DNA from: a bacterium
GTDB taxonomy: Bacteria; Patescibacteriota; Minisyncoccia; UBA6257; Colwellbacteraceae
Assembly: GCA_029548485.1 (NCBI GenBank)
Contig: JAKPNH010000008.1
Span: 1,563 to 65,562 of the forward strand
Direction of reading: 5' to 3'
DNA length: 64,000 nucleotides
Shown here: piece after piece, positions 2,401 through 44,992 of the stretch
How positions within the stretch are numbered: the first letter of the stretch is position 1
Layout of the letters: each line of letters begins with the position of its first letter
Notes under the pieces: model-generated
What the model saw: the letters and a program-made list of their open reading frames with translations, nothing else
Databases searched by the model: none
What the model was told of the DNA's origin: nothing
Translations under genes and position numbers: made by a program

Positions 2401-2467
2401 TGACGGCCTCCCGGAATTAAGCTTTAAATAGGGTGGATTCGGACAAATCCTAAAGGGGGTCTTTTCA

Positions 2468-3412: not shown

Positions 3413-3416
3413 CATT

Positions 3417-3444
3417 AGCAGGCCAACCGGCCTGCTTTTTTATT
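3417..3444 (+). terminator. rho-independent terminator after prs
   Basis: agcaggcc-aaccgg-cctgct stem followed by TTTTTTATT. Confidence 0.55.
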
Positions 3445-3457
3445 GATAAATATGAAG

Positions 3458-3529
3458 TGGACCCAGATGGAATTGGACCATCGGCCTTTCCGATGTGAAC
3501 GGAACGCTCTACCACTGAGCTATGGGTCC
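3458..3529 (-). tRNA. tRNA-Val (anticodon CAC)
   Basis: Cloverleaf folded by hand: acceptor GGACCCA/TGGGTCC, D-arm GCTC..GAGC, anticodon stem TTCCG/CGGAA with loop TTCACAT, T-arm GATGG TTCAATT CCATC; CCA not encoded. Confidence 0.85.
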
Positions 3530-3546
3530 GGAGCTTAATTATCAAG

Positions 3547-3581
3547 ATAACAAAAACCGGCTTTTTTGAACAGCCGGTTTT
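3547..3581 (-). terminator. rho-independent terminator downstream of rplL
   Basis: Minus-strand hairpin aaccggct/agccggtt followed by TTTGTT. Confidence 0.5.
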
Positions 3582-3603
3582 CGAATCAAAGTCTCGCTCG
3601 GAA

Positions 3604-3963
3604 TTACTGCAATTCCGCGGTGGCGCCGACTTCTTCGAATTTCTTTTTGAGTTCGTCGGCTTCTTCTTTTTTCAATCCTTCCTTGACGACTTTCGGAGCG
3701 GCGTCAACCAAGTCTTTGGCTTCTTTAAGGCCAAGGCCGGTCGCCTCTCTCACCACCTTGATGACGTTGATTTTCTGGTCACCCGAAGCTTTAAGAAGAA
3801 CGTTGAAAGACGTTTTCTCTTCGACGGCGGCGCCGGAAGCGGCCGCGGCCGCCGGAGCGCTGGCGGTAACGCCGAATTTTTCCTCGAGAGCCTTTACCAA
3901 TTCCGAAAGCTCCAAGGCGCTAAGTTTCTCGATTTCCGAGATGATGTTTTGGAATTTTTCCAT
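3604..3963 (-). CDS. rplL: 50S ribosomal protein L7/L12
   Basis: Ala-rich hinge plus conserved C-terminal domain ([27 protein letters not shown]). Confidence 0.95.
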
Positions 3964-3973
3964 GTTGGTTTAT

Positions 3974-4453
3974 TTATGCTGTTTGTTTCGACCTCTCTTG
4001 CAACACGTAAAGAAGCGAAGTGAGTGGAGCGGCGATCGTTCCGACAACCTGGCCGAGCAGAATTTCGCGGGGCGGCAGCTTGCCCATGGCAACGATGTCC
4101 GCCGCGGGGATCGTCTGTCCGGATGCGATGTCGAATCCTCCGAGCACCTTGAAGCCTTCGGCTTTGTAGATCGGACCGGAAACGGCAAAAACATCGGTCG
4201 GAGAAAAAACCGTGCCGACCTGGCCTTCGAAAGTTTCCGGATCGATAGCGACATTCGCTCTCAAGAAAATCAATTTGAGCAGCCTTTTTTTGACCACGTC
4301 GAAATGTCCGCCCAATTTCCTCATCTCGCTTCTGAAAGCGTTGAGTTTACCCGTGGGAACGCCGGTGAAATCCAAAAAAACCATTGACTGGCTGGATGCC
4401 ACGTCCTTTGCTCCCTGTCTCAAGATCTCCTGTTTTTCTTTTCTGGTAAGCAT
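3974..4453 (-). CDS. rplJ: 50S ribosomal protein L10
   Basis: L10 family sequence; immediately upstream of rplL. Confidence 0.95.
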   Translation of the reverse strand: MLTRKEKQEILRQGAKDVASSQSMVFLDFTGVPTGKLNAFRSEMRKLGGHFDVVKKRLLKLIFLRANVAIDPETFEGQVGTVFSPTDVFAVSGPIYKAEGFKVLGGFDIASGQTIPAADIVAMGKLPPREILLGQVVGTIAAPLTSLLYVLQERSKQTA

Positions 4454-4610
4454 GTGTATTTTTTATTTTCCCGAAAAGGAAATAAAAAACTGCGCTATAA
4501 ACCCGCAGTCGACCTGAATGTTTGTCCTCGGCAGGTTCCTTTAAAGGAATTAAGGCGAACGCCTGCTTTCTGCGGATATGGCTTATCTTCTCACAGATTC
4601 CCCGCTCTTG
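4454..4610 (-). promoter_or_regulatory. rplJ-rplL leader (possible L10 autoregulatory leader / promoter region)
   Basis: 157-nt non-coding leader upstream of rplJ; inferred by position only. Confidence 0.25.
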
Positions 4611-5315
4611 TCAATTCTTGGATTTCACGAGCGGCACGAAGCTGAAACCGAAATACTCCTTGGTTTCGAACTGGTCCGGCTTTATTTTATCGATGACGAC
4701 GATGCTTTGTCCGACCGGAGCGACGATGCGACCGCCGACAACGAGCTCTTCTTTCCAAGACTCGGGGATTTCCTCGGCCGCGGCGGCGGCGATTATTTTG
4801 TTGAAAGGCGGCTCGTTTTCCATTTTTTTGGAGCCGTCACCGACGACGATCCTCACCCGGCCGGAATCGATGAATCCGTATTTTCCGATATTCTCTTTGG
4901 CTTTTTCCGCCAATTCCTTGATGCGCTCGATCCCGACCACCTGTCCGGTTTCTCCGACCAGTTCGGCCAGGATGGCCGCTTGCCAGCCGCTGCCGCTTCC
5001 CACGTCGAGTACGCGCTCTCCGGGCTTCGGCCGCAAAAGCTCAAGCATGAAAGCGACGACCAAAGGCTGGGAAATGGTCTGCTCAAAGCCGATGGCCAAA
5101 GCCGAATCGAAATAAGCCTCTCCTAGAAGCTCCGGAGGCACGAAATCTTTCCGGTCGATTTTCCGGAAAGCCTCGGCGATGACCGGCGTTTGGATATATC
5201 CGTCGGTTTCGAGATGTTTTATGAGCTCTTCGTAGCTTTCGTTCACAAACCCGGAATTAGCCTCATCCTCATTTTCCGGGCTGTTTTCCTCGAAAATATT
5301 GATTTTTTCAGCCAT
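4611..5315 (-). CDS. pcm: protein-L-isoaspartate O-methyltransferase
   Basis: QTISQPLVVAFMLELL and VLDVGSGSGWQAAILA SAM-binding motif. Confidence 0.9.
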   Translation of the reverse strand: MAEKINIFEENSPENEDEANSGFVNESYEELIKHLETDGYIQTPVIAEAFRKIDRKDFVPPELLGEAYFDSALAIGFEQTISQPLVVAFMLELLRPKPGERVLDVGSGSGWQAAILAELVGETGQVVGIERIKELAEKAKENIGKYGFIDSGRVRIVVGDGSKKMENEPPFNKIIAAAAAEEIPESWKEELVVGGRIVAPVGQSIVVIDKIKPDQFETKEYFGFSFVPLVKSKN

Positions 5316-11750: not shown

Positions 11751-11795
11751 GATATCGTTTGAACCTTTGAATTATAGCTCAAAAACCGTCCCGGT

Positions 11796-12800
11796 TCATC
11801 CGTGCCTGACGACAACGACATCCCCGTCTTCGACCGCGTAATCTTTGCCTTCGAGCCGGATCCAACCTTTTTGCCTGGCGTTCAGCCAGCCGCCGGCTTC
11901 GACCAGCTTCAGATATTCGACCACCTCCAGCCGGATGAAGTTCTTCTCGAAATCGGTATGGATCGTTCCGGCCGCCTGCGGGGCCTTGGTTCCTTTTTCG
12001 ACGGTCCAGGCGCGGGTTTCGTCCTCGCCGGTCGTGAAAAAACTGATCAGTCCCAAGACTTCGTAGGATTTCCTGATAAGCTCGGAAAGATCGGTCGAAG
12101 TAGCGAGATCCTGAACGACGAAATCGGCGTTCAAAGATTTTATTTTTCCCCTCAATTCCGGCTTGATATCTTCGAGTCCGCCGTTCAAAAGATAAATCTG
12201 CGGCTTGGCGGTCAAAAAACCGAGTTCTTTGACGATCGGTTCGCTTTTGACGTCCACTAGATTGACAATCAGATTTCCGGTTTCCAGGCCCGCTTTTATT
12301 TTTTTCAAAACCTCGAGCTCGCGGATTTTCTGCTTGTCTCCGGTGCGCGCCTCTCTCTCGAGGCTTCCCAGGCGCTTCCCAGTTGTTTCCAGGTCCTTGA
12401 AAACCAACTCGGTATTGATGATGTCGATATCGCGGATCGGATCGATTCCGTTTTCCACGTGGATGATCTCCGAAGACTCGAAACACCGAACCACCTGGAC
12501 AATGGCGTTCGTTTCCCTGATATTCGCCAAGAACTGGTTTCCCAGCCCTTCGCCCTGGTAGGCGTTTTTGACCAGGCCGGCGATGTCGTAAAACTCGACG
12601 ACCGCCGGAATCTTTTTCTTGGAAACGCTCATCTCGGCGAGCGTGTCGAGCCGGCGGTCGGGCACGGCCACCACGCCCACGTTCGGATCGATGGTGGCGA
12701 AAGGATAATTGGCGATATTCACCTCCTGCTTGGTCAGAGCTTTGAAAAGCGTGCTTTTTCCGACATTGGGCAAACCCACTATGCCGATAGAGAGTTTCAT
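11796..12800 (-). CDS. ychF: ribosome-binding ATPase YchF (Obg-family GTPase)
   Basis: G1 motif GLPNVGKST, NxxE specificity motif and C-terminal TGS domain. Confidence 0.9.
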   Translation of the reverse strand: MKLSIGIVGLPNVGKSTLFKALTKQEVNIANYPFATIDPNVGVVAVPDRRLDTLAEMSVSKKKIPAVVEFYDIAGLVKNAYQGEGLGNQFLANIRETNAIVQVVRCFESSEIIHVENGIDPIRDIDIINTELVFKDLETTGKRLGSLEREARTGDKQKIRELEVLKKIKAGLETGNLIVNLVDVKSEPIVKELGFLTAKPQIYLLNGGLEDIKPELRGKIKSLNADFVVQDLATSTDLSELIRKSYEVLGLISFFTTGEDETRAWTVEKGTKAPQAAGTIHTDFEKNFIRLEVVEYLKLVEAGGWLNARQKGWIRLEGKDYAVEDGDVVVVRHG

Positions 12801-12982
12801 TGCAATTCAGTGTAGCCAAAAACAGTTTTGATGACAAACAAAACCGCCTCCGCGCTTTGAACGTTCACCACGCCAACTATCATCGAGGCCGCCGATATCG
12901 AAACAGATGGCGAATCCGTAAGCCTCGTCCGATTGTCCTTGCGTCCCCTCTTCTATATAATTCGATATGATTTTTTAACCGT

Positions 12983-16100: not shown

Positions 16101-18626
16101 CTAGCGGTCAAGCGCTTTTTTCAGGTATTCTCCGGTGTAGCTTCCTTTTTTCCTCGCCACCTCTTCCGGAGTGCCGAAAGCCACCACTCGGCCGCCGTTT
16201 TCTCCGCCTTCGGGACCGAGATCGATCACCCAGTCCGCGGATTTGATGATGTCGAGGTTGTGCTCGATGACGACCGCCGTATTCCCCCTGTCGACCAGAC
16301 GTTGGATGACTTCCAAGAGTTTTTTGACGTCCTCGAAATGGAGCCCGGTGGTCGGCTCGTCCAAAAGATAAAGCGTCCTTCTCGTGTCGCGCTTGCCGAG
16401 TTCGGCCGCCAGTTTGATGCGCTGGGCTTCGCCGCCGGAAAGGGTCGTCGCCGATTGGCCGAGTTTGACGTATCCCATGCCGACTTCGTCCAAGATTTTC
16501 AGCTTGTCGCGGAGCCAAGGAATGTCTTTGAAGAACTTGACCGCTTCCTCGATCGACATCTCCAAGATGTCGTAGATGTTTTTTTCGCGGTATTCGACTT
16601 CCAAAGTTTCGCGGTCGAATCTTTTTCCCTTGCAAACATCGCAAGAGACGTAGACCGTCGGCAAAAAGTGCATTTCGATGGCGATGTATCCGTGGCCTTC
16701 GCAATGCTCGCACCGACCTCCGCGGACGTTGAAGCTGAACCGTCCGGGCTTCCAGCCGCGGATCCTCGCGTCTTCGGTCGAAGCGAAAAGCTCGCGGATA
16801 TCGCTCCAGGCGCCGATGTAGGTTGCCGGATTGGAACGCGGAGTCCGCCCGATCGGAGACTGGTCGATATTAACTACCCGGTTCAAGTATTCGAGCCCCA
16901 TGATCGCCTTCAGGGCTCCGGGCTTGAAGCTCGCGTGGTTCAATTTGTTGGCCACGGCTTTATACAAAACATCGTAGACTAAGGTGCTTTTGCCGGAACC
17001 GGAAACCCCGGTGACGGCCGTGAACCGGCCGACCGGAATATCGACGTTGATGTCCTGGAGATTGTTCTCCGTCACTCCGCGGAGCTTCAGGGTCGGGACG
17101 TCCTTGATCCCGCGGCGTTTGACGGGAATGTCTATCTCTTCCTCTTTGCGCAAATACCGCAAAGTGAGTGAATCCTTTTTCTTGTCCTTGAATATTTCCG
17201 GAATCGGGCCTTCGGCGACAATACGGCCTCCGTTTACGCCCGCCGCCGGCCCGAAATCGACGAGATAATCCGACGACCTGATGGTTTCTTCGTCGTGTTC
17301 GACGATGATGATGGAATTTCCGAGATCGCGAAGCTCGTGGAGCGTATTGATCAGCTTCTCGTTGTCGCGCTGATGGAGCCCGATCGTCGGCTCGTCGAGA
17401 ATATAGAGGGTACCAACGAGCCGCGACCCTATCTGGGAAGCAAGACGGATCCGCTGGGATTCTCCGCCGGACAAAGTGCCGGCCTTCCTGTCCAAAGTGA
17501 GGTAATCGAGCCCAACGTCGTACATGAACTTCAATCTCGCCGAAATCTCGCGCAAAGGAACTTCGGCGATCTCTTTCTGCTTGGCGGTCATTTTTTCTCC
17601 GAGACTCCGGAAAAATCCCTGGGCTTCTCCGATCGACATCCCCGTCACTTCGCTGATGTTTTTGTTCTCCACGAGAACGCTCAAGGCTTCGGGCCGCAGA
17701 CGGCGTCCGCGGCAGACCTCGCAAACATCGTCGGACCAGATGTCTTTGACGCCCAATCCGTGGCAGGCTTCGCAAGAGCCATAAGGGCTGTTAAAGGAAA
17801 AAAGCCTCGGCTCTATTTCCGGGAAAGAGAAGCTGTCCCGCGGACAAGAAAATTTGGCCGAAAAGCTCGCTTCCCGGTCGGCGTTCCTGAAAACGACCGT
17901 GTCTTCGGCGTGCTTCAATGAGGCTTCGACCGCCTCGCTCAAACGCAGACGGTTGTCTTTGTTTTTTAAGTCGAGGCCGGCCGGCAAGCGGTCGATTAGA
18001 ATCTCGATCATGTGCTGCTTGTAGCGCTCCATTCTTATTTTGTCGCGGAGCGACCGCATTTCGCCGTCGATCCTCGCCTCGCGGTATCCGGCCGACAAAA
18101 AGTCGTAAAGCATTTGGTAATATTCCCCTTTCCGGCCGCGGACCACCGGACTGAAAACGATCAATTCTTTCTCCAACCTGCCCTTCGGCGCGGAAAAAGC
18201 GATGGCGGCGTCGACGATCTCCTCGAGGCTCATCTTTTTGATCTCCTGGCCGCAGATCGGACAAAAAGGCGTTCCGGCCCGGCTCCACAAAACCCTCAGA
18301 TAATCGTAGATCTCGGTGATGGTCGCCACGGTCGAACGCGGATTCGAAGAATGCGCTTTCTGATCGATGGAAATCGCCGGAGACAACCCCTCGATCTCGT
18401 CGACGTCCGGCTTGTCGAGCCTGCCCAAAAACTGCCTGGCGTAAGCCGACAAAGACTCGACGTAGCGGCGCTGGCCTTCGGCGAAAATGGTGTCGAAAGC
18501 AAGGGAAGATTTTCCCGATCCGGAAAGACCGGTGAAAACGACCATTTTATTCCGGGGAATCTCAAGATCGATGTTTTTCAGATTATGCTCCCGCGCTCCC
18601 TTGATGATGATTCTGTCTTTGTTCAT
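16101..18626 (-). CDS. uvrA: excinuclease ABC subunit A
   Basis: Two ABC ATPase modules and zinc fingers; canonical N-terminus; 841 aa. Confidence 0.95.
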
Positions 18627-18628
18627 TT

Positions 18629-20632
18629 TTATTTCCTGTTCAATCCCGATTTCTTCAATTCGGGCTTTCTTTTCATTTGCTCGGTCAAAACCTTGATTTC
18701 ATCCCTCAAGATGGCCGCCAGCTCGAAATCGAGTTCTTTGGCCGCGGCTTTCATTTCGCGTTCTTTCTGTTTCAGCATCGCCTCCAAAGCCTTTTCCGAT
18801 CTCGGCACCGGCTTCATTTCCAAATCGAGCAGCTCGTCGGTCGGCAAAATGTCTTTCACTTCCCGGACGATCGTCCGCGGCGTGATGTGATGCTCTTCGT
18901 TGTAGGCGAGCTGTATTTTCCGACGGCGTTCGGTCTCGCTCATGGCCCGCTCGATCGATCCGGTGATCGAATCGGCGTAGATCAAAACCTGGCCCCTGAC
19001 GTTTCTCGCGGCCCGGCCGATCGTCTGGATAAGCGACGTCTCACTCCGCAAAAAGCCTTCTTTGTCGGCGTCGAGTATTGCCACCAACGAGACTTCCGGC
19101 AAGTCCAACCCTTCCCTTAAAAGATTCACGCCCACGAGCACGTCGAAGGCGCCCCGCCGCAAATTGGTAAGGATCTTGATCCTTTCCAGGGTCTTCACGT
19201 CGCTGTGGAGATAGGTCACCTTGATCTTTTGCTCTTCGAGATAAGAGCTTAAATCCTCGGCCATGCGCTTGGTCAAGGTCGTCACGAGCACCCTCTCTTT
19301 GGATTCGACCCGCTCCCTGATCCGCGGAATCAGATCGTCGATCTGGCCCCTGGCCGGACGGACAATAAGCTCGGGATCGACCAGGCCGGTCGGCCTGATG
19401 ATCTGCTCGACGATTTTTCCGCTGCGGCGCTTCTCGTGCTCTCCGGGCGTGGCCGAAGTGTAAATCACCTGGCCCACTCGCTTCTCGAATTCCGGAAAAG
19501 TGAGCGGCCTGTTGTCAGCGGCCGAAGGCAGCCTGAAGCCATATTCGATCAAAGTCTTTTTCCTCGAGGCGTCTCCTTCGTACATGCCCCTCAATTGGGG
19601 AACGGTCACGTGCGATTCGTCGATCACCACGAGAAAATCTTTGGGGAAATAATCGAGCAAAGTCGAAGGCGGTTCGCCCGCGGCCCGGCCGGAAAGATGA
19701 CGCGAATAATTCTCGATGCCGTTGCAATATCCGATTTCCCGCATCATGGCGATGTCGGCCCGGGTCCGGCGCTCCAATCTCTCGGCTTCCAAAAACAGTT
19801 TTTTGGATTCGAAAAACTTCAGCCTTTCCTCGAGTTCTTTTTCTATATTCGACAAAGCGGCTTCCCGCTCTTTGTCCAAGGTGATGAAATGCTTGGCCGG
19901 GGAAATGAAAACCTCCGGAACCGACGGAGTCTTGTCCGGCTCGTAGCCCGCGACTGGATCGATCCTCAATATTTCCGCGATTTCGCCGGATTCCAAACGG
20001 AAATTGTAGATCGTTTCCTCGTTCGGCGGCATTATTTCCCAGTTGTCTCCGCGAAGCCTGAAAGTGCCCCGTTTAAGATCGGCGTTGGTGCGATGGAACT
20101 GCATTTTAATGAATTGCCTCATCAGTTCCTGCCGCGTGATCTTGTCCCCGACTTTAAAATGAAGAATATTTTTCTCGTAAACTTCCGGGCTTCCCAAGCC
20201 GTAGATGCAGGAAACCGAAGCCACGATGATGACGTCTTTCCGGGTTAAGAGGCTCGTGGTCGCCGCGTGCCTAAGTTTGTCGATTTCGTCGTTGATCAAA
20301 GCTTCTTTGCCGATATAGGTGTCGGTCCGCGGCATGTAGGCTTCGGGCTGGTAATAATCGTAATAAGAGACGAAATAATGGACCGCGTTTTCCGGAAAAA
20401 GCTCCCGAAACTCGTTGCAGAGCTGGGCCGCCAAAGTTTTGTTGTGGGCTATCACCAATGTCGGCCGATTGACATCTTTGACGACGTTCGCCACGGTAAA
20501 GGTTTTACCCGATCCGGTAACGCCCAAAAGGGTCTGCTCTTTGAGACCCTGATTCAAGCCCGAAACCAGCTCTTCGATCGCCTTGGGCTGGTCTCCGGCC
20601 GGTTTGTTTTTGGAAATCAATTTAAACGCCAT
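18629..20632 (-). CDS. uvrB: excinuclease ABC subunit B
   Basis: Helicase motifs ([10 protein letters not shown]), UvrB beta-hairpin region and C-terminal UVR domain. Confidence 0.95.
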
Positions 20633-20801
20633 TTGAACAGCAAAATTTCCCCCGGTTTTGCTTTCATATAAGGGAGTATGAAGGGTTTATACCACAAAAA
20701 CAACGGAAAATCAAGGGAGGTTTTAATTAGTATAGACTTTAATACCCGCTTTTATTATGATAAAAAAAGTAACTTAACATTTTGCTAAGGAGGATAATAA
20801 G

Positions 20802-21329
20802 ATGGGGTCCTTAGGCACGACAATTATCATAAAACCCGATGCGTTTCTTGATAATGTCGATTGGCTTGTGATTAAGGATTTCATTGAAGCTGGCGTTCAA
20901 GTCATCTGGGGGAAATATGTCCAGATACCAGAAGAAGCCGTCAGATATCTTTACGCAGATCAAACTATGAAACCATTCTACTCTTCTATAGTGAGGTCTA
21001 TCACTATAGGTACATCTTTAATTCTTGTCGCGGTTATCGATGACATCTCACGCCTTCGCAAGATTAAGGGTGTTCCTGGTATATCTGGTATTCGTGGCAA
21101 GTATTGTCTGTCTAAAGAAGCGCTGGCATCTACTGGATTATCGGGGGAGAACCTTGAAGATAAAGTTTCGGAGAATAGAATCCATACCCCCGATTCTCTT
21201 GAAGAGACGGCTATAATTCTACAGATGTTTTTTACCGACCAGGAAATAAAAACAATAAAACTACATCCTGCATTTTCATTCCTGGAAGAATTCGATAGAA
21301 TTATAGCGCTACCTAAATTCTCTGGATAA
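20802..21329 (+). CDS. nucleoside diphosphate kinase-like protein (divergent NDK)
   Basis: NDK-like pattern: IIIKPDAF (Lys), KPFY, G...V...R...G, IRG, NRIHTPDS with a candidate catalytic His; AGGAGG RBS. Confidence 0.6.
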   Translation: MGSLGTTIIIKPDAFLDNVDWLVIKDFIEAGVQVIWGKYVQIPEEAVRYLYADQTMKPFYSSIVRSITIGTSLILVAVIDDISRLRKIKGVPGISGIRGKYCLSKEALASTGLSGENLEDKVSENRIHTPDSLEETAIILQMFFTDQEIKTIKLHPAFSFLEEFDRIIALPKFSG

Positions 21330-21330
21330 A

Positions 21331-21361
21331 AACATCATGGTATTCGCCATGATGTTTTTTG
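21331..21361 (+). terminator. rho-independent terminator after the NDK-like gene
   Basis: acatcatgg-loop-ccatgatgt followed by TTTTTTT. Confidence 0.55.
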
Positions 21362-21383
21362 TAAATCAAATTATTATTTAAAG

Positions 21384-21908
21384 ATGAATGGACATAAAAT
21401 TCATATTACTTGTATCAACGGCTCTTCTATAGATGGACGAATTACTGATGTCCATCGCCACTTTCACCAATGGTCCAGCCAAGAAGATCAGAAGTTTCTT
21501 AAATCAGAAATCAAAAAAGCCGACTGTATTATTGTGGGTTATATAACTTATAAACGTTCAGTTAATTTATTAAAGAATAAAAGAACTATCGTATTTAATC
21601 GTAGAAATATAAAATATCTTGGTAATAATATCTATTTTATTAAACCGAACAGGAAAACTCTTTTTAAAATATTACATTCTACACAATCAAGAAAAGCACT
21701 TGTAATAGGTGGAATGAACACATATTCATGGTTTATAAAACAAAATATAGTAGATAAATGGTACATAACAATAGAACCATACTTTTTTGGCACCGGGCTG
21801 CCTCTTTTAAAGATTAAGGAGTTTAAACCTAAAAATGCTCGATTAGAATCAGTTAAAAGAATTAATAATAAAGGAACTCTATTATTAAAATATAGTATCA
21901 ATAAATAG
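21384..21908 (+). CDS. dihydrofolate-reductase-like / RibD C-terminal-domain reductase
   Basis: DHFR-fold signatures (ITCINGSSIDGRI, ALVIGGMNTYSWF...TIEPYFFGTGLPLL). Confidence 0.6.
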   Translation: MNGHKIHITCINGSSIDGRITDVHRHFHQWSSQEDQKFLKSEIKKADCIIVGYITYKRSVNLLKNKRTIVFNRRNIKYLGNNIYFIKPNRKTLFKILHSTQSRKALVIGGMNTYSWFIKQNIVDKWYITIEPYFFGTGLPLLKIKEFKPKNARLESVKRINNKGTLLLKYSINK

Positions 21909-21930
21909 TTTCCTTATTACAACTATTGTA

Positions 21931-22506
21931 TTAATAAATATGCCCAAATTGATGTAAATACTTATATACAATCTCCATAGGCATGCCGTAAGCTCCGGTA
22001 TATGAACCATTGATCGATTGAACCAAAGTAAATCCGGGTGCATCAATAAACAAACCTAAACCACTCGCCATTCTTAATGGAAAATTATCTTTAAAAAGTC
22101 TTTCTAGGTCGCTACGATCAAATTTTTGATACGTAATTCTCGTCTTCGATAACTTGGTGAAGAAACCTTTTCGCGGATCGTACAAAGTTATTCCGGTTAA
22201 CGCAAGTATCTTTTTCCCGCTTTGCTTAATAGCCATACGATAAGCCTCTTCCATATCTTTAGGCTTGCCGATAGTTTCTCCATCAAGAAGAGTTAAGGTG
22301 TCTGCGGCAATAATTATCGATTCCGGATGCCTATCTCTAACTGATTCGCATTTCTCTAGTGAAATCCCCCGTACTCGATCTTCGGGATCCAAATAATCAA
22401 ACTTGGACTCGTCTATATCGGCCGGATCAATGTTAAAATCAAGCTTTGATTTTTCTAAAACAAGTTTCTTAAGAAAGGAATTTGACGCTAGGATTATCTT
22501 TTTCAT
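21931..22506 (-). CDS. maf: Maf-family nucleoside triphosphate pyrophosphatase
   Basis: Maf/Ham1 motifs: ILASNS, IIIAADTL..DGETIGKP. Confidence 0.8.
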   Translation of the reverse strand: MKKIILASNSFLKKLVLEKSKLDFNIDPADIDESKFDYLDPEDRVRGISLEKCESVRDRHPESIIIAADTLTLLDGETIGKPKDMEEAYRMAIKQSGKKILALTGITLYDPRKGFFTKLSKTRITYQKFDRSDLERLFKDNFPLRMASGLGLFIDAPGFTLVQSINGSYTGAYGMPMEIVYKYLHQFGHIY

Positions 22507-22509
22507 TTA

Positions 22510-23157
22510 TTATTTATGTTTTTTAGCTCTATATTTATTATAGACTTTATTATATGCAGAAAGATTCATCCATTCCCAAGGATATTCTATATATTGCATA
22601 GTTTCCTTCATAGATATTTTCTCGCTATATACATTAGGTTGTATGATGGCTTTTTCTCGCCAAGGGAAATCTCGTGCTCCTTTAAAATCCACAAAGTGTA
22701 AAGTCGCTATGCGAGAATCTGTATTAAACTTACGATCTATATATTTTTTTACAAATAAAGCAGTCCTGCCCGTTATATATGGTGTATCTAAAATCCAGAT
22801 CTCTCCGCCGTTCTTCATTAATTCTTTAATACTAACGCTTGAAAGATTATCTAAACCTTGCTCTAGAATAGGACGCTCTTTACTTGTATTATGATTAATA
22901 TACGATGCTATTACAGTAAATATCTTATATTTAATTTTTTTATTTTCGAAGAAATTGCACAGAATTCTAGAAAAAACCCATGCTCCACGACCTACTGAAA
23001 TAAATATTGGATGTTTACTAATCTTTTTTATCTTATGTGCGATAATCTCTGTCTGGCAAAAAATGTCATTAAAATCATACCAGATTCCATGTCCTGTTTT
23101 GTACGCCGTAAATAATCGCCGATCTTCTCGAGATCTTATTGTCTGTCTATTCTTCAT
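22510..23157 (-). CDS. type I phosphoribosyltransferase-like protein
   Basis: PRPP-binding-like loop EIWILDTPYITGRT preceded by a hydrophobic strand (IFISVGRGAWVF); substrate unknown. Confidence 0.5.
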   Translation of the reverse strand: MKNRQTIRSREDRRLFTAYKTGHGIWYDFNDIFCQTEIIAHKIKKISKHPIFISVGRGAWVFSRILCNFFENKKIKYKIFTVIASYINHNTSKERPILEQGLDNLSSVSIKELMKNGGEIWILDTPYITGRTALFVKKYIDRKFNTDSRIATLHFVDFKGARDFPWREKAIIQPNVYSEKISMKETMQYIEYPWEWMNLSAYNKVYNKYRAKKHK

Positions 23158-23226
23158 AATAATTTTAAGCCTACAATATACCTCTTATATTGACAAATAT
23201 ACTTATTTGTTATAAAAAACATATAA

Positions 23227-23784
23227 ATGAATAATGAATCTTTAGAGGATGCCTGCAAAAAACTCGTTAGCGTTCTTAATCCAGAATGGGAGACAAATCC
23301 CGACATGAAGGAAACCCCTTTAAGAATTGCTAAAATGTATGCTAGCTTCTTTAGAAACGAAGACACCACGCAATATTTTAGTAAAAGATTCCCTACTAAA
23401 AACAAAGAGTTAGTTATTTTAAAAAATATTGAATGTTTCGGTATGTGTCCACATCACCTTACGCCCGTAATTTATAATGTGCATATAGGATATATTCCGC
23501 GTGGTTGGGCTATCGGTCTAAGCAAATTAGCTAGAATTGCTATTGCTTTATGTAGCTACCCTAAACTTCAAGAGAACTTTACTTCAGAAGTAGCTAATGT
23601 CATTAATGATAATTTAAAGCCTAGAGGAGTAATCGTTGTGGTAGAAGGTATTCATAACTGTATTAGATGCCGAGGAGTTGAAAAGCTTTCAACATGTATA
23701 ACTTCTGAGATCAGAGGAGTATTTATTAATCATCCTGAAACTAAACAGGAATTTATTAGTTTAATAAGTTTAAACAATTATTGA
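23227..23784 (+). CDS. folE: GTP cyclohydrolase I
   Basis: Zinc/active-site motifs CPHHLTP...HIGYIP, GLSKLARI, VVVEGIHNCIRCRGV. Confidence 0.85.
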   Translation: MNNESLEDACKKLVSVLNPEWETNPDMKETPLRIAKMYASFFRNEDTTQYFSKRFPTKNKELVILKNIECFGMCPHHLTPVIYNVHIGYIPRGWAIGLSKLARIAIALCSYPKLQENFTSEVANVINDNLKPRGVIVVVEGIHNCIRCRGVEKLSTCITSEIRGVFINHPETKQEFISLISLNNY

Positions 23785-23813
23785 TATAAATCCATTATTA
23801 AAAATGGATAAAT

Positions 23814-24401
23814 CTACTTGTAATAAGCCCGGTTTTCCATCCGGAAATCCACGTACTGGAGGTTTTTCATTTCCCCGGATTTCATCAGTGATTCCAAAAC
23901 CGGAACCGCGAAATCCGGAGAGTTCTTGAGGCTGAAATAAAACTTGGTTCCGGAATCGATTTCGATACACGCCTCCTTAAGGGATAGATCGCCGAGATCA
24001 ATGACGCCGAAATTGAAGCCGAGCTCTTTCATGATCGCGGAAATCCGGTAAAGGTTTTCGGCTTCGCTCAAGTCAAGCGCCTGGTCTCCGGTTTTCATTC
24101 CGTCCGAAAGCGCCTTCACGGTTTTGATCAAACTCCCTTCGGTTTTCGGGGCCTCCTCGAAAAGCCTGCCGTCGCTTCCCAGCCAAAAGCATTTTTCGGA
24201 GCACCAGATGATGGTTTTTTCCGGCAAAAGAGCCGGGTCGGCCGCGTCCGGATCTCCGGACGTAATCTTCTCGTAAACGAACACCGCCTTGGCCAAAGCC
24301 CAATCCTTCAAAGAAACCAAATAATCGGGATTAGTTTTCCAAAACCACCCGATTCCGGCGACGGCGATTATAAGCGATACGAGCCGAATGATCCGGCGCA
24401 T
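23814..24401 (-). CDS. membrane-anchored hypothetical protein, possibly FtsQ/DivIB-like
   Basis: Single N-terminal TM plus C-terminal VDFRMENRAYYK resembling the FtsQ C-terminal DLRY region; ATG at 24399-24401 chosen to avoid a 35-nt overlap with serS. Confidence 0.35.
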   Translation of the reverse strand: MRRIIRLVSLIIAVAGIGWFWKTNPDYLVSLKDWALAKAVFVYEKITSGDPDAADPALLPEKTIIWCSEKCFWLGSDGRLFEEAPKTEGSLIKTVKALSDGMKTGDQALDLSEAENLYRISAIMKELGFNFGVIDLGDLSLKEACIEIDSGTKFYFSLKNSPDFAVPVLESLMKSGEMKNLQYVDFRMENRAYYK

Positions 24402-25645: not shown

Positions 25646-26989
25646 TTATTGAAGCTGTTTTTTCGGCCTTAGGGTCGGAAAGATTATTATTTCTTTCAGG
25701 GGCTTGCCGGTGATGAGAGACACCAGCCGATCGATGCCGATACCGATTCCGGCCGCCGGCGGCATGCCGTATTCGACGGCTTCGATGAAATCCTCGTCGA
25801 ACCTGGTCGTTTCCTCGTCTCCGGCCCGATAACGTTGCTCCTGGTCTTCCATGCGTTCGCGCTGGTCGATCGGATCGTTCAATTCCGAAAAAGCGTTGGC
25901 CACTTCGGTTCCCTTGACGATCAGCTGGAACCTTTCGACGAGCCGCGGATCTTTTTCGTCGAGCTTAGCGAGCGGCGAGATGGCTTTCGGGTGTCCGGTA
26001 AGAAACACCGGCTTCACCAGCTTCGGACGCACCTCTTTCTTGAAAACCTCGTCGATTTTGCCTTCGGGAATCTTCATCAGATCGCGGCCGGCGTATTTTT
26101 TCATCGCCTCCGCGTAGGTGATCCGGCCGTATTTTCCCGGAATGAATTTTTTCAGAAGCTTTTCCGTGAATTTCATCAAACCTTCGTAATCCTGGTAAGC
26201 CCAGTAAAGCTCGAGCATGGTGAATTCCGGATTATGCTCGCGGTCCATGCCTTCGTTCCTGAAATTCCGGCCGATCTCGAAAATCTTGGAGAATCCGGCG
26301 ACCAAAAGCCTTTTCAAATAGAGCTCAGGGGCCACCCTTAGATAAAAATCCGTGTCCAGTGCGTTGTGGTGCGTTTTGAAAGGCCTGGCGAGCGCTCCCC
26401 CGGGAATCGGCTGGAGCATCGGCGTTTCCACTTCCATAAATCCTTCAGAGGCCAATGTTTCCCGAAGCGAGGCCAGGATTTCCGAACGCAAAACCAGGTC
26501 TTTTTTGACGTCCTCGTTCAAAATTATATCGAGATACCGCTTTCGGAACCGCTCTTCGACGTCGTCCAGACCGAACCAACTCGAAGGGATCGGCCGCAGC
26601 GATTTCCCGACCAAACGGCAAGCTTTGGCTTCGACGCTTTTCTCGCCTTTTTTCGTTTTGAACAGGATTCCGCCGACTTCCATGAAATCTCCGGCGTCGA
26701 AGATTTCTTTCAAAAACTTGAAATCTTTCAGGTTTTTTTTCGTCAAAACAGCCTGGATTTTTCCGGTACCGTCGTCGATATCGGCGAAAATCACGCCTCC
26801 CTGATCGCGGAAAGAAATAACCCTTCCGACCAAATAGACTTTCTTCTTTTCCCGGCTGAACTTCGCAAATCCGTTCAAAGCTTCGGCCACGGACATGGTC
26901 CTTTTCACTCTCGCCGGATAAGGATTGATCCCTTCCCGGCGCAGTGTCTCCAGCTTTTTCCTCCGCGATTCGATGATATCTTCCAGCAT
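25646..26989 (-). CDS. lysS: lysyl-tRNA synthetase (class II)
   Basis: OB anticodon-binding N-terminus; FRNEGMDREHNPEFTMLELYWAY motif 2. Confidence 0.9.
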   Translation of the reverse strand: MLEDIIESRRKKLETLRREGINPYPARVKRTMSVAEALNGFAKFSREKKKVYLVGRVISFRDQGGVIFADIDDGTGKIQAVLTKKNLKDFKFLKEIFDAGDFMEVGGILFKTKKGEKSVEAKACRLVGKSLRPIPSSWFGLDDVEERFRKRYLDIILNEDVKKDLVLRSEILASLRETLASEGFMEVETPMLQPIPGGALARPFKTHHNALDTDFYLRVAPELYLKRLLVAGFSKIFEIGRNFRNEGMDREHNPEFTMLELYWAYQDYEGLMKFTEKLLKKFIPGKYGRITYAEAMKKYAGRDLMKIPEGKIDEVFKKEVRPKLVKPVFLTGHPKAISPLAKLDEKDPRLVERFQLIVKGTEVANAFSELNDPIDQRERMEDQEQRYRAGDEETTRFDEDFIEAVEYGMPPAAGIGIGIDRLVSLITGKPLKEIIIFPTLRPKKQLQ

Positions 26990-27067
26990 GGTTTTATTGA
27001 ATAATCTTAAACCATTTCTTCTTATTTACAAATTCCCCCGCTTTTGGCGGGGAACTCGAAGACTTTA

Positions 27068-27529
27068 TTATTCTCCGATCTTAGTTACGAGATAGGCGAT
27101 TTCCTGGCCGGCCGGATTCTTGAACACGGCCTCGTCCCCGACCTTCTTGCCGAGGAGCGCCCGGCCGAGCGGAGACTCGTTCGAAATCAACCCTTCTTCC
27201 GGCTTGGTTTCGTTGGAGCCGACGATGACTATCTTTCTCTTATCGCCGTTCCGCGCCACTTCGACGGTCGAACCGATGTCGACCACTTCCTGCTGGGCGA
27301 CTTTTTTAATGATGACGGCGCTTTTGATGATGTCTTCCAATTCTTCGATGCGGCTTTCGATCCGGTCCTGCTCCTCCCTCGCGTTCTCGTATTCGGCGTT
27401 TTCCGAAAGATCCCCGTATTCCTTGGCTTTCTTGATCCTGTCGGAAACCTCGATCCGGCTCACGGTTTTCAGTTCGACCAATTCTTTCTTCAACTCCTCA
27501 AGCCTTGCGGCCGACAAATAATAATTCAT
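27068..27529 (-). CDS. greA: transcription elongation factor GreA
   Basis: Coiled-coil N-terminus with DLSENAEY acidic tip and FKBP-like C-terminal domain. Confidence 0.9.
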   Translation of the reverse strand: MNYYLSAARLEELKKELVELKTVSRIEVSDRIKKAKEYGDLSENAEYENAREEQDRIESRIEELEDIIKSAVIIKKVAQQEVVDIGSTVEVARNGDKRKIVIVGSNETKPEEGLISNESPLGRALLGKKVGDEAVFKNPAGQEIAYLVTKIGE

Positions 27530-31970: not shown

Positions 31971-33590
31971 TTATTCGAGCGTCAAGCCGATCCGGCTTAT
32001 GTCGGCCGGGATGCTTCTCACCCAGAAAGGCCAGAGGGTGACGACCGCCGACTGGATCTCCTCGTCTCCGGCGACATGGAGGCTGAAATCTTCTTCGGAT
32101 TTTCCGGCCACGGCCGACTTGAATCCTTCGGCGTCGAAAGCCCTTGACCATTCCGAAACGATGGTTACGGGGATGATCGCCTTGCCCGTATCGAAGTTGA
32201 CGCTCGCTTCGCCGTAATCTATTTCGTAGCTTTTCATCTCGTAATCCTCGCCCGGACCGCTTGTTTCCAGCTTTTCCTCGGCCACTTTGCGGACGCTCGC
32301 CTCGTCGAAAGCCATGATTTTGGTTTCGGCGGCGAGCATCAATTTGAAGTTCCCTTTTTCGTCGACGTCTTCGATCACCTCTTCCTTGACGATGGCGTAT
32401 GAGGTCGCTCCTTCGATAGCCCGGAGAGTTTCGGGAACGGTGATGTCTTCGGCCGCCTTGACCATGGCTAACAACTCTTGCCTGGACTTTTCTTTGAGGC
32501 TCGCGATGTCCGCTTCCGTGGGCACTTTGACGTCGCCCACGAATCCGCCGGACATGGCTTCTTTGGATTCCCCGTAAAATCCGTTGAACTTTGGCGTGCC
32601 TTCGAATCCGGGTATGCGCCAGCTTTGTCCGGCCGGAAGATTGTAATCGCTCCCCGGTTTTTCCGCCGTCACCTTGACGTCGATCGCGGAGGCCACTATT
32701 TTTCCTTCGCTGATCGCCGCCCCGGGAATGGTGATCGCCTCGGTTGTTTTGAAAACCTTCCCGCCGGTGGTGATGAAGCGCGTTCCCTTGACGATCGACT
32801 GCTTGCTCGAGCTGTAGGCGTTGTAAACCGTAATGATGCCTTCGGCGCTCTGCTCAACTTTTTTGGTGCCGCTCGCCGGAGCGCTGAAAACGTTGTTTTT
32901 ATCGATGGAGAACACTTGGCCGGGAATGGTGAATCCGGTTTCGGCGCTCGCCTTGATCGAAGCGGTGATGGCGATCGGCGTTTCCCAGCGCGTTTTCGCG
33001 AGCGTCAAACGCGCCTCCGCCTTCGGCAGGAGGAAAACGGCGGCGTAAGCCAATGCTCCGGCCAAAAGGATTCCTCCGGACGAAAAAACGACTATCTTCA
33101 ATCTTCTCGATTTCCGCGGCCGATCCTCGGGCGCGGGTCTCGGCCTAGGCGGTTCAGGGCTGTATTCGCGGATTATCGGTTCGGTTTCCGGAAATTTCTC
33201 TTCTTCCGGATGAATCGGCGCGGTTTCTTCCCGGGGAACGCGCACCGGCCGCGGCTTTACGCGGGCGGAAACCGGAATGATGTCGGCCACGGCCCGTTTC
33301 ACTTTCTTAAAAACGGGGTTGATCACCTGGAAACCCGAAGCCAAAGCGAGATCGACGATGTCTTCGTCGCTTGACTCGACGATCACCTGCTTTCCCATGG
33401 CCGAAGCCTCGCGGAAAATCAGATAAAAATTGTTTCCGTTCTCTCCGAGCAAGGAATATCTCGGAACGGCCAAAATAACCTTGGACTCGCGGCTGTTCAA
33501 GATCTTTTGGATGACCGCGGCCGCGGAATCGGTTTTTTTGAGGTATATTTTTTTGTTTTCGGGTTTTTCCATCAGCTTATGTTGAGCCAT
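31971..33590 (-). CDS. hypothetical membrane protein: cytoplasmic N-domain, Pro-rich linker, single TM, large extracytoplasmic domain
   Basis: 539-aa ORF; TM segment [23 protein letters not shown] after a [14 protein letters not shown] linker; no family recognised. Confidence 0.5.
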
Positions 33591-42916: not shown

Positions 42917-43255
42917 TTAAAGAACAGCCTCCTGCTCTTTATCGCGAATGACGCATTTTTCGCAGGGCTGGCCGCAGAGGCACTCGATCGCCTCTCCTCC
43001 ATGGAGGCAATATTGCGTCTCGCTCTCATCGTCTTTCAGGAAATAGAAAGGGCAAACACCCATATCTATTCCCCATTCTTTCTGGATCCGGAATACGAGC
43101 TCCCTGGCCGGCATGATCGGCCAGGGACAAGTTTCTGGAAGAAGCTTTTCCAAAAGACCAGGCCTCTCGTTTTCTTTCGCTTCGCGGAGCATTTCTTCTC
43201 CGCCGATCAAATCGAGCTCTTTGAGAGCGGCTTTCACGCGGTCGGAACGCACCAC
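42917..43255 (-). CDS. hypothetical Cys-rich protein (possible metal-binding)
   Basis: CPW...CPFYF...C.HGG...CLCGQPCEKC cysteine pattern; no family assigned. Confidence 0.45.
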   Translation of the reverse strand: MVRSDRVKAALKELDLIGGEEMLREAKENERPGLLEKLLPETCPWPIMPARELVFRIQKEWGIDMGVCPFYFLKDDESETQYCLHGGEAIECLCGQPCEKCVIRDKEQEAVL

Positions 43256-43374
43256 CCAACACCTCCAAAGCTATATTCGGATAATTAACAAAATAATGTT
43301 TTTGCGAACCGCGGTCAAGGTTAGATCCTTTATTCTTGAGAAAAAACCCGTAAAAGTATAAGCTGAATACGCTT

Positions 43375-43462
43375 GGAGAGGTCGCATAGCGGTCTAGTGC
43401 GTTCGCTTGGAAAGCGAATATACCGCAAGGTATCCAGGGTTCGAATCCCTGCCTCTCCGCCA
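43375..43462 (+). tRNA. tRNA-Ser (anticodon GGA), CCA encoded
   Basis: Acceptor GGAGAGG/CCTCTCC, anticodon stem TTCGC/GCGAA with loop TTGGAAA, long variable arm, T-arm CAGGG TTCGAAT CCCTG, terminal GCCA. Confidence 0.9.
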
Positions 43463-43498
43463 GTTGGTAAAAGAGAGGAAAATCATTAAAATAGAAAT

Positions 43499-44988: not shown

Positions 44989-44992
44989 AAAA

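Follow-up and report, generated by a model that had tools for sequence, protein, structure and literature searches.

A low-GC gene island in a Candidatus Colwellbacteria genome is very probably an acquired copy of a rare FolE, phosphoribosyltransferase-like and Maf gene module

Introduction

Members of the Candidate Phyla Radiation (CPR, Patescibacteria) are thought to obtain their nucleotides by scavenging and to be without most pathways of cofactor synthesis. The stretch analysed here, 64 kb of contig JAKPNH010000008.1 from the CPR lineage Candidatus Colwellbacteria (hereafter the window), carries within a housekeeping region a 3.2-kb block of low guanine-plus-cytosine (GC) content (20633-23813), in which five compact genes encode a nucleoside diphosphate kinase-like protein (NDK-like), a dihydrofolate reductase-like protein (DHFR-like), a Maf-family nucleoside triphosphate (NTP) pyrophosphatase, a protein resembling phosphoribosyltransferases (PRT-like) and GTP cyclohydrolase I (FolE). 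The locus raises two questions: where did this island come from, and do its genes serve a common chemistry? In this study, we find that the island is very probably a laterally acquired, rearranged copy of a conserved but rare CPR module, and we weigh the pathways that this module could encode.

Results

The island differs sharply from its surroundings and is present in independent assemblies

The block lies between two genes of the minus strand, uvrB, which starts at 20632, and the next one along, whose stop is at 23814. Its GC content is 0.332, compared with 0.518 for the remaining 60.8 kb, and it is the sole low-GC block of the window, in which every other kilobase has a GC content of at least 0.45. 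Third-position GC content (GC3) of the five island genes is, in order, 0.36, 0.22, 0.34, 0.25, and 0.26, compared with 0.71 in uvrA, 0.70 in uvrB, 0.64 in the seryl-tRNA synthetase gene (SerRS), 0.65 in the lysyl-tRNA synthetase gene (LysRS), and 0.66 in the adjoining downstream gene; open reading frames (ORFs) outside the island have a mean GC3 of 0.62 (standard deviation 0.085). Tetranucleotide distance, calculated in 3-kb sliding windows, is maximal on the island (z = 19.7 against 111 background windows), which is the top outlier of the window. At the left border, GC content steps from 0.60 (20550-20599) to 0.32 (20600-20649), the exact insertion boundary not being resolvable inside the 169-bp left junction, and host-like composition returns within the gene after the right junction. 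All five ORFs are intact, with the motifs NRIHTPDS, CPHH, and GLSKLARI present, and no native paralogues of the island genes were found in the other 61 kb of the window. A preliminary description of this DNA had placed a sharp AT-rich block with five genes at these coordinates, and GC, GC3, tetranucleotide composition and ORF calls all bear it out; the drop itself is real, and only the flank value of 55-60% GC given there was too high, the flanks having 51-57% and the flanking genes 0.51-0.55.

Exact copies of the FolE and UvrB proteins occur on contigs of at least seven assemblies, with the same gene order across both junctions: ENA ERZ795030 and ERZ27257401, JGI 3300010344, 3300009720, 3300037067, and 3300025682, and Logan SRR22315506. 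The contigs, of which the shortest has 4 kb and the longest 237 kb (another has 71.5 kb), come from different samples and assemblers (SPAdes-style NODE, MEGAHIT k141, JGI, and Logan), and short ones among them span the whole island. They align to the window at 99.8-100% identity. Identical proteins are listed at NCBI under 'Candidatus Colwellbacteria bacterium', which places the host in the CPR. The only difference within the island among the seven assemblies is an intergenic A/G polymorphism at 20675, with zero coding changes, and the right flank carries up to seven single-nucleotide polymorphisms in one sample. The island is fixed in the sampled population. The earlier view that it is foreign DNA in a housekeeping region is thus upheld by its composition and by the identical junctions in seven assemblies.

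The module carries two uncharacterised enzyme subfamilies

The PRT-like protein, which is the defining gene product of the module (Table 1), matched no Pfam family, including PF00156, and its NCBIfam Xpt match (0.003) reached 17 bits against a cut-off of 138; a weak precomputed PF00156 match was seen in two distant members of its family only, and its sequence match to PDB entry 5vog was marginal. An AlphaFold2 (AF2) model built with the family alignment reached a pLDDT of 90.2 and a pTM of 0.87; a single-sequence prediction (pLDDT 47) was set aside. In a Foldseek search of the PDB with this model, purine phosphoribosyltransferases (PRTases) took all of the 50 top matches, the best being 5vog (E 3.7e-10, TMq 0.63, TMt 0.75), and the matches included Sulfolobus APRT/HGXPRT, a Pyrococcus PRTase, yeast HGPRT, and E. 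coli XGPRT. On the strength of this model, we are confident in predicting a purine-PRTase fold for the window protein; the PRTase-like assignment of the preliminary description has therefore survived the fold test, with an active site that is non-canonical.

The motif that binds phosphoribosyl pyrophosphate (PRPP) reads D-T-P-Y-I-T-G-R-T in the window protein, with an L before it, and D-E-V-D-D-S-R-V-T in 5vog, so that two of the three acidic residues of the motif are missing. The second motif position is T, A, G, or S in 15 of the 15 family members and never acidic (5vog has D-E), and the position before T-G is I, V, L, H, Q, N, S, K, or G across the family, again never acidic (D in 5vog). 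In HPRTs, the Asp preceding T/S-G is the general acid/base at purine N7 (HPRT enzymology; PDB titles 1i0l and 1i13). Conserved elements of the family are the pyrophosphate (PPi) loop GRG[GA]W, the T-G-x-T loop, APWR, and YPWE, and its family-specific invariant residues are W60, Y86, E94, Y139, and W166-R167. The family is rare, with 14 cluster representatives at E <= 1e-10 among 1.84 billion in an exhaustive HMMER search. A word-indexed search returned only the query itself, and little more with the family profile; the exhaustive HMMER search and tblastn on the loci exposed the family.

The gene directly downstream encodes a full-length Maf domain, which matches B. subtilis Maf in the PDB (1e-22) and is 57% identical to the Maf of contig L029, one of the sister loci described below. 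Maf proteins share the catalytic signature S-R-E-K-D-K and divide by specificity triads, R-T-Q in YhdE, which acts on dTTP, UTP, pseudo-UTP, m5UTP, and m5CTP, and W-Q-E in YceF, which acts on m7GTP (PMC3899018). The window Maf keeps the catalytic signature (S8, K13, D/E32-33, K52, D69, and K81), with Lys at the second signature position, where four of the nine module-linked Mafs have R. Its specificity triad is L-T-D, and [L/I/T]-T-D is found in all nine module-linked Mafs, which consequently fit the triad of neither subfamily. The nine also share a two-residue insertion in the base-binding loop (SGLG[LF]FxD[AS]PGF), and the module Mafs have an aromatic residue one position before the triad residue. 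Because the invariant Asp of the triad occupies the position of the Glu in the purine-specific YceF, the module Mafs may recognise a guanine-like or pterin-like ring.

The module recurs with variable content in other lineages

We compared the contexts of PRT-like genes from ten lineages, several on short contigs. Contigs are referred to by their labels (Table 1); the named hosts are the Colwellbacteria of the window and a Candidatus Dojkabacteria metagenome-assembled genome (MAG; L015), and the CPR nature of the other contigs is judged from gene content. Of the nine lineages in which the contig permits a call, eight have Maf in the operon; an adenylate kinase-like (ADK-like) kinase occurs in 8 of 10 lineages, and FolE is present in all six lineages with sufficiently long contigs. 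Three lineages have QueD and three a reductase, whereas NDK is found in two lineages and Ham1 or NUDIX in four. The special Maf directly follows PRT-like in nearly all contexts, often with overlapping or abutting gene ends. The conserved unit is PRT-like, Maf, the ADK-like kinase, and FolE, with the ADK-like kinase missing in the window copy; QueD, NDK, a pterin-type reductase (DHFR-like here, a short-chain dehydrogenase/reductase (SDR) elsewhere), Ham1, and NUDIX are variable slots.

The locus closest to the window set is L027, which has FolE, PRT-like, Maf, NDK, and a reductase but no QueD; its reductase slot holds an SDR, whose top NCBIfam matches include pteridine reductase and dihydromonapterin reductase, all below cut-off. 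The gene combination of the island therefore recurs; the five genes, which the preliminary description had treated as a unit, do not form the conserved unit, since NDK and the reductase are variable. Compared with L029, the window copy has FolE inverted relative to PRT-like and Maf, has lost QueD and the ADK-like kinase that its closest relatives have, and has gained the NDK-like and DHFR-like genes. In L025, a housekeeping Adk is present beside the dedicated ADK-like kinase. The sister-locus 6-pyruvoyltetrahydropterin synthase (PTPS) proteins (L014/L029, L015, and L025) have the motif CxxxHGH, which is the signature of QueD/PTPS-I (PMC5041015).

FolE proteins of the module fall into two clades that are about 30% identical, one with the window, L010, L011, L014, and L029 and the other with L025, L027, and L031. 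FolE was therefore recruited to the module more than once, and the presence of two distant clades in the same module argues for functional coupling.

The NDK-like, DHFR-like, and FolE genes

FolE is canonical and full-length, with the CPHH and C-x-R-G zinc and catalytic motifs; its NCBIfam FolE subfamily score of 160 bits is just under the cut-off of 162. Its closest relatives are metagenomic (71-53% identity), with 71% identity to L010, 58-59% to L029 and L014, and 57% to L011.

The DHFR-like protein scored 52 bits with RibD_C (cut-off 24) and 24.1 bits with DHFR_1 (3e-5; cut-off 25), and matched a dihydrofolate reductase family in PHROGs (9e-8). Its best solved relative is Thermotoga maritima DHFR (1cz3, E 1.8e-19 over 149 residues), and the W-S-S-x-E-D-x-K block is kept. 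Folate, another pterin, and a ribosylaminopyrimidine are candidate substrates. This gene has the lowest GC content in the island (0.28; GC3 0.22).

The NDK-like protein scored 57.3 bits with Pfam NDK (cut-off 27) and missed every NCBIfam NDK equivalog (55 against 155); it has 47 NDK matches in the PDB, the best being 3q83 at 3e-9. The context of the catalytic His is NRIHTPDS instead of the canonical NIIHGSDS (NRIH aligned to NIIH), and the Lys of IKPD, the Tyr, and the Asn are retained. A 12-residue insertion breaks the TIRGDF element, and the canonical Arg of this element is displaced or lost. The NDK assignment made from the sequence alone thus withstands profile searches, divergent as the protein is, and those of DHFR/RibD-C-like, Maf, and FolE are confirmed by Pfam and PDB matches.

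Directly 3' of the NDK-like stop codon, a hairpin at 21328-21359 has a folding energy of -17.2 kcal/mol, compared with -6.1 +- 2.0 in shuffled sequences (z = -5.6; 0 of 200 shuffles as good). It is likely an intrinsic terminator and possibly a bidirectional one, because an A-run precedes it. Its position after the stop suggests that the NDK-like gene is a separate transcription unit. An AAGGAGG ribosome-binding site lies directly 5' of the ATG at 20802. The uvrB promoter must lie within the left junction, and the promoters of the PRT-like/Maf pair and of FolE are presumed to lie in the divergent intergenic region, where a TTGACA hexamer was spotted by eye at 23191-23196; a promoter scan gave no signals above chance in the AT-rich DNA of the island, and the hairpin after the NDK-like gene was the one informative result of the terminator scan. 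No Rfam riboswitch was detected in the island at E <= 5 or in nine sister loci at gathering score.

Table 1. Features of the island in the window and gene content of the sister loci
Feature	Position	Strand	Description
Left junction	20633..20801	none	intergenic, uvrB start (minus) to NDK-like gene; 169 bp, GC 0.32
NDK-like	20802..21329	+	divergent nucleoside diphosphate kinase, 175 aa; Pfam NDK 2e-15; GC 0.40, GC3 0.36
Terminator-like hairpin	21328..21359	+	intrinsic-terminator-like, directly 3' of NDK-like stop; 13/14-bp stem, U-run
DHFR-like	21384..21908	+	DHFR/RibD_C-superfamily NADPH reductase, Thermotoga maritima DHFR type, 174 aa; Pfam RibD_C 1e-13
Maf	21931..22506	-	Maf-family NTP pyrophosphatase, distinct subtype, 191 aa; Pfam Maf 1.4e-30; 3 bp downstream of PRT-like gene
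PRT-like	22510..23157	-	215 aa, predicted type I purine-PRTase fold (AF2 model and Foldseek); defining gene of module
Divergent intergenic region	23158..23226	none	between PRT-like/Maf pair and FolE; 69 bp, GC 0.17
FolE	23227..23784	+	GTP cyclohydrolase I, 185 aa; Pfam GTP_cyclohydroI 6.3e-46, 156.5 bits
Right junction	23785..23813	none	FolE stop to convergent host gene stop; 29 bp, GC 0.14
L029/L014/L016/L030			NUDIX, 101-aa ORF, FolE, QueD, PRT-like, Maf, ADK-like kinase, HD_4
L015 (Candidatus Dojkabacteria MAG)			FolE, 2H-phosphoesterase-like ORF, QueD, PRT-like, ADK-like, SDR
L025/L026			FolE, ADK-like, Maf, QueD, PRT-like; gene ends overlap
L027			SDR, ADK-like, PRT-like, Maf, SDR, FolE (opposite strand), long NDK, Ham1
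L031/L032 (human oral metagenome)			GreA, LysRS, FolE, ADK-like (split, two frames), PRT-like, Maf, 131-aa ORF, NUDIX, Ham1
L021/L022			tRNA-Met, PRT-like, Maf, ADK-like
L017 and L028			(ADK-like,) PRT-like, Maf
L024			PRT-like, Maf
L018			ADK-like, PRT-like

The island probably came from a low-GC CPR donor

The nearest relatives of the window FolE, PRT-like, and Maf proteins are found on L010, L014, L029, L015, and L024, with identities of 71-58%, 41-34%, and 57-54%, respectively. These contigs have a uniform GC content of 0.29-0.39, and the module matches its surroundings there. Because the closest relatives sit on uniformly low-GC contigs, we infer that the donor of the island was probably a CPR organism of low GC content. 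Module GC is also below that of the flanks in the oral lineage L031 (0.40 against 0.51), and so is that of an analogous cluster in L011 (approximately 0.37 against 0.44). These data are most simply explained by repeated transfer from CPR lineages of low GC content. Patchy, laterally shaped accessory metabolism is known in CPR (PMC7304191).

The genes called in the 10 kb to each side of the island include no integrase, transposase, or phage family. The five tRNA genes of the window are all remote, the nearest at least 14 kb from the island, and the direct and inverted repeats at the borders are short ones such as chance predicts in AT-rich DNA, none of them convincing. The absence of integrase, transposase, tRNA, and direct repeats at the borders, already remarked on in the preliminary description, therefore stands. 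A plasmid origin was rejected for want of plasmid similarity. Near the module of L029, tRNA-Arg and tRNA-Ser genes and a gene for a 439-aa large serine recombinase lie 5-7 kb upstream (2435-4741), and a search of L029 for att-like repeats of these tRNA ends found none. In L021, a tRNA-Met gene (4641-4712) is located 280 bp upstream of the PRT-like gene.

Discussion

Proposed function and competing explanations

Taken as a whole, the locus is best explained as an acquired, rearranged CPR operon that supports a line from guanine to a reduced pterin; we give this explanation a probability of about 0.5. The pathway itself, from guanine through GTP to a reduced pterin, is more tentative, with every substrate and the end product deduced from the predicted enzymes. 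PRT-like would join a salvaged guanine-type base to PRPP to give a nucleoside monophosphate (NMP), which kinases would convert to the triphosphate: NDK-like and a host NMP kinase in the window, the ADK-like kinase elsewhere. FolE would then form 7,8-dihydroneopterin triphosphate from GTP, and QueD, where present, 6-carboxytetrahydropterin. Maf would strip pyrophosphate from a guanine-like or pterin triphosphate to leave the monophosphate, and the DHFR-like enzyme, or an SDR elsewhere, would reduce the dihydropterin ring. The outcome would be a self-contained guanine-to-reduced-pterin line for a cell without de novo purine synthesis.

In favor of this proposal, the known chemistries of PRTase, NMP kinase or NDK, FolE, and pterin reductase join without a gap, and the reductase slot is held by two unrelated pterin-type reductases, the T. 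maritima-type DHFR and the SDR of L027. Several observations weigh against it. In PRT-like, the PRPP motif is missing its second acidic residue, and the Asp that 6-oxopurine PRTases use at purine N7 is absent as well; ordinary guanine may therefore not be the substrate of PRT-like. The divergent dedicated kinases beside a housekeeping Adk (L025), and the extra Ham1 and NUDIX proteins, fit a non-canonical nucleotide better. QueD acts directly on the triphosphate, and for that reason a role of Maf as a dihydroneopterin-triphosphate pyrophosphatase is awkward in the three lineages with QueD. The residue losses of PRT-like and the direct use of the triphosphate by QueD, like the kinases and the extra hydrolases, agree more readily with a non-canonical nucleotide. 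The link of the NDK-like and DHFR-like genes to the module comes from L027 and L015 only, no pterin-dependent enzyme was seen near any module copy, and no mobility gene, tRNA, or repeat at the window borders accounts for the insertion. The preliminary description had proposed a chain from NDK through FolE and Maf to the DHFR-like enzyme, with the PRTase salvaging a base; this chain is still the most parsimonious one, and its chemistry is deduced throughout, the non-canonical active sites of PRT-like and Maf making a non-canonical substrate equally plausible.

The serious rival is a route to a non-canonical nucleotide resembling the biosynthesis of tubercidin and toyocamycin, which we regard as possible, if doubtful. 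In such a route, FolE, together with QueD where present, would build a guanine-derived heterocycle, which would be a 7-deazapurine given an unlinked QueE and otherwise a pterin such as 6-carboxytetrahydropterin (CPH4). PRT-like would join this heterocycle to PRPP, the ADK-like kinase and NDK would phosphorylate the product, the reductase would tailor the ring, and Maf, Ham1, and NUDIX would either exclude the analogue from the cell's NTPs or release it. The tubercidin pathway itself uses GTP cyclohydrolase I, CPH4 synthase, a radical-SAM 7-carboxy-7-deazaguanine (CDG) synthase, a PRPP transferase acting on a deazaguanine base, an NADPH reductase, and a Nudix hydrolase (PMC6112128). Sister loci have a QueD-type PTPS, and the CPR cluster of L011/L012 holds QueD, a radical-SAM gene, a FolE 57% identical to that of the island, a small PRTase, kinases, a methyltransferase, and Ham1. 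The PRT-like family lacks the Asp that contacts purine N7, and the L011 PRTase has Gly there; the Maf triad is new, and Mafs favour modified nucleotides; the divergent kinases appear as dedicated copies besides the housekeeping Adk. However, the radical-SAM protein QueE lies beside none of the ten PRT-like loci, and the window and L027 lack even QueD. An exporter, a transglycosylase (Tgt/DpdA), and an enzyme of the GMP-reductase type were not seen, and the reductases present are of the pterin type. We know of no precedent for N-ribosylation of a pterin.

Somewhat harder to credit is the proposal that PRT-like is a new phosphoribosyltransferase acting, instead of on a normal purine, on a heterocycle derived from FolE (and QueD), either a pterin (such as 6-carboxytetrahydropterin, or one derived from dihydroneopterin) or a deazapurine made by an unrecognised route, and yielding a hitherto unknown CPR nucleotide analogue. 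If this were true, the analogue could serve as a cofactor, an antimetabolite, or a nucleic-acid precursor, with Maf, Ham1, and NUDIX protecting the pool, and the module would spread laterally as a self-contained trait. That the module encodes new nucleotide chemistry is, in our judgement, a minority prospect.

It is also improbable, and more so, that there is no single pathway and that the block is a patchwork of ordinary nucleotide-salvage and pool-sanitation genes (a purine PRTase, NDK, Maf, a DHFR for thymidylate recycling, and FolE), which tend to be co-located in reduced CPR genomes and were here replaced or supplemented by transfer from another CPR organism. The neighbours in sister loci are indeed varied pool enzymes (NUDIX, Ham1, a UMPH-1 nucleotidase, HD_4, and Ppx-GppA), and gene order and content differ among lineages. 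Within the island, a terminator separates the NDK-like and DHFR-like genes and transcription runs in three directions; the oral lineage shows decay, its ADK-like gene being frameshifted and its PRT-like gene split; and a patchy, lateral accessory metabolism in CPR is on record (PMC7304191). On the other hand, with its 14 representatives PRT-like is too rare for a general CPR salvage enzyme, and it is tightly coupled to a special Maf subtype. Moreover, FolE, which is no salvage enzyme, is present in all six lineages with sufficient contig and is drawn from two distant clades.

A phage-derived nucleotide-pool kit of prophage auxiliary genes, which the preliminary description had offered as an alternative, or a known anti-phage defence system, is very improbable. 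FolE and the DHFR-like protein do have PHROG families, and FolE is common in phages (406 records), but phage FolEs are all at most 38% identical to that of the island, whereas cellular metagenomic relatives reach 71%. In the 50,697 phage records of INPHARED, tblastn found no match for PRT-like or the DHFR-like protein, and NDK-like found only generic matches of 26-28%. In six scans of IMG/VR, some of them with family alignments, neither the five proteins nor the PRT-like family nor the module-type Maf had a relative. No PADLOC model matches, and structural and integration genes are absent from the called genes within 10 kb. A phage origin was set aside on the outcome of the PHROGs, INPHARED, and IMG/VR searches. 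Finally, an assembly or binning chimera joining low-GC foreign DNA into a high-GC contig, in favor of which stands the abrupt composition change at both gene boundaries and nothing else, is ruled out because seven independent assemblies from different pipelines reproduce both junctions at 99.8% identity or more, on contigs of up to 237 kb.

Genomic neighborhood and side observations

Within 10 kb, the island is flanked on one side by genes for a GHMP kinase, UvrC, a patatin, UvrA, and UvrB, and on the other by those for SerRS, LysRS, GreA, and a ribosomal-protein/RpoA cluster. The gene after the right junction (23814-24401) encodes a small protein with an N-terminal hydrophobic segment that matches no Pfam or NCBIfam family; its earlier label as FtsQ-like has no supporting model in either collection. 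The oral-lineage module (6510-9409 in L031/L032) lies directly after GreA and LysRS, and the window neighborhood at 25646-27500 is alike, with GreA, LysRS, SerRS, the gene once labelled FtsQ-like, and then the island. This arrangement hints at a preferred or ancestral location near GreA-LysRS, despite the foreign composition of the island. DNA-damage genes also occur near the module or its analogue: uvrB-uvrA in the window (16101-20632), a photolyase gene 4 kb upstream in L021 (850-2382), LexA 9 kb upstream in L029 (18-629), and, in L011/L012 (3545-17884), the FolE/QueD/radical-SAM/PRTase cluster itself between uvrB and uvrA with LexA upstream. The association may be fortuitous, or it may reflect a common setting in the damage response. 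In contig L003 of JGI 3300009720, uvrB (18629-20632 in the window) is split by one mismatch into two ORFs of 343 and 308 aa, which is either a nonsense variant or a sequencing error.

The structure closest to the PRT-like model, 5vog, was crystallised with ppGpp, and genes related to (p)ppGpp adjoin module FolEs: an HD_4 gene (RelA/SpoT-type hydrolase domain) after the ADK-like gene in L029 (11908-12429) and a Ppx-GppA gene 5' of FolE in L010 (1817-3307). In the oral lineage, a protein of which is indexed in 96 blocks, the coding sequence of the ADK-like gene falls into two frames (9412-9989 in L031), and PRT-like fragments of 51 and 134 aa are found on 31 contigs (protein cluster P0128/P0141). 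The module seems to decay in this lineage.

Elsewhere in the window, a minus-strand ORF at 11779-12837 (352 aa) has a GC3 of 0.35 at an overall GC content of 0.53, unlike all other long ORFs outside the island, and may have been called in the wrong frame. At 43000-45000, GC content dips mildly (0.45-0.48) and AT and GC skew switch to positive, next to a tRNA-Ser gene (43375-43462). A minus-strand gene at approximately 31971-33590 (539 aa) has a precomputed Pfam Baseplate_J match and adjoins the infA/S13/S11/S4/RpoA ribosomal cluster, for which a phage-baseplate-type domain is an odd neighbour.

Relation to known systems

The individual enzyme families are already known, as is lateral accessory metabolism in CPR (PMC7304191). 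FolB, FolK, FolP, FolC, QueC, QueD, and QueE are absent from the island and from the called genes within 10 kb on either side, and tblastn with the QueD and radical-SAM proteins of the sister loci found no QueD or QueE homologue in the 64 kb. The locus is accordingly neither a folate nor a queuosine operon, as had been noted from the sequence. In the searchable literature, we found no description of the operon, of a PRT-like family with an altered PRPP motif, or of the L-T-D Maf subtype; the remark that this is not a described operon agrees with our search. The core of FolE, PRT-like, and Maf is a rare operon, apparently without earlier description, and is found in ten or more CPR-like lineages.

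The module is a compact, laterally mobile operon that points to a defined and testable guanine or pterin chemistry in CPR, including a widespread human-oral lineage, and it contributes two uncharacterised enzyme subfamilies with clear signatures, the PRT-like family and the L-T-D Maf subtype. If its product is a non-canonical nucleotide, tubercidin-type chemistry would extend to ultrasmall episymbionts; if it is a simple guanine-to-pterin line, a gap in CPR metabolic maps would be filled.

Compared with classical genomic islands and transferred metabolism in CPR (PMC7304191), the island shares a sharp compositional break, a patchy distribution, and a metabolic cargo in a housekeeping neighborhood. 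It differs from classical integrase-borne islands in that the window borders lack integrase, tRNA, and direct repeats; a serine recombinase and tRNAs are found only near L029. Like YhdE and YceF (PMC3899018), the module Mafs have a full-length Maf domain with the catalytic residues S-(R/K)-(D/E)-K-D-K; they are set apart by the [L/I/T]-T-D triad, the preceding aromatic residue, and the two-residue loop insertion. PRT-like has the predicted fold of the 6-oxopurine PRTases (E. coli XGPRT/Gpt, yeast and archaeal HGPRT, and N. gonorrhoeae 5vog), with TMt up to 0.75-0.81, and shares their PPi loop G-R-G-G, the T-G-x-T 5'-phosphate loop, and the C-terminal (Y/F)PW(E/D). It differs in its identity of 13-20%, in the lack of a PF00156 match for the window protein, and in its PRPP motif, where every member of the family has other residues in place of both the second acidic residue and the Asp that precedes T-G.

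The reduced-pterin pathways to tetrahydrobiopterin (FolE, PTPS-II, and sepiapterin reductase) and to E. coli tetrahydromonapterin (FolE, FolX, and FolM) likewise proceed from FolE to a pterin-type reductase, and a pyrophosphatase step would be plausible. However, the module lacks PTPS-II (CxxxxxHGH) and FolX, the PTPS of the sister loci is of the QueD type, and the island has no PTPS at all. The known pathways contain no PRTase, NDK, or NMP kinase, and the reductase in the window is not an SDR.

The tubercidin and toyocamycin clusters of Streptomyces (TubA-G and ToyA-M; PMC6112128) resemble the module in starting with GTP cyclohydrolase I and in having a purine-type PRPP transferase on a GTP-derived base, an NAD(P)H reductase, and a nucleotide hydrolase of the house-cleaning type, to which the sister loci add a QueD-type CPH4 synthase. 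They differ in that none of the PRT-like loci has a radical-SAM CDG synthase (QueE/TubB) next to it, in that QueD is missing from the island, and in that the module has neither a UbiD decarboxylase nor an exporter. The reductase is of the DHFR/RibD_C or SDR type and not a GMP reductase, the hydrolase is a Maf and not a Nudix protein, the PRPP motif of the PRTase is non-canonical, and the hosts are CPR bacteria instead of actinomycetes.

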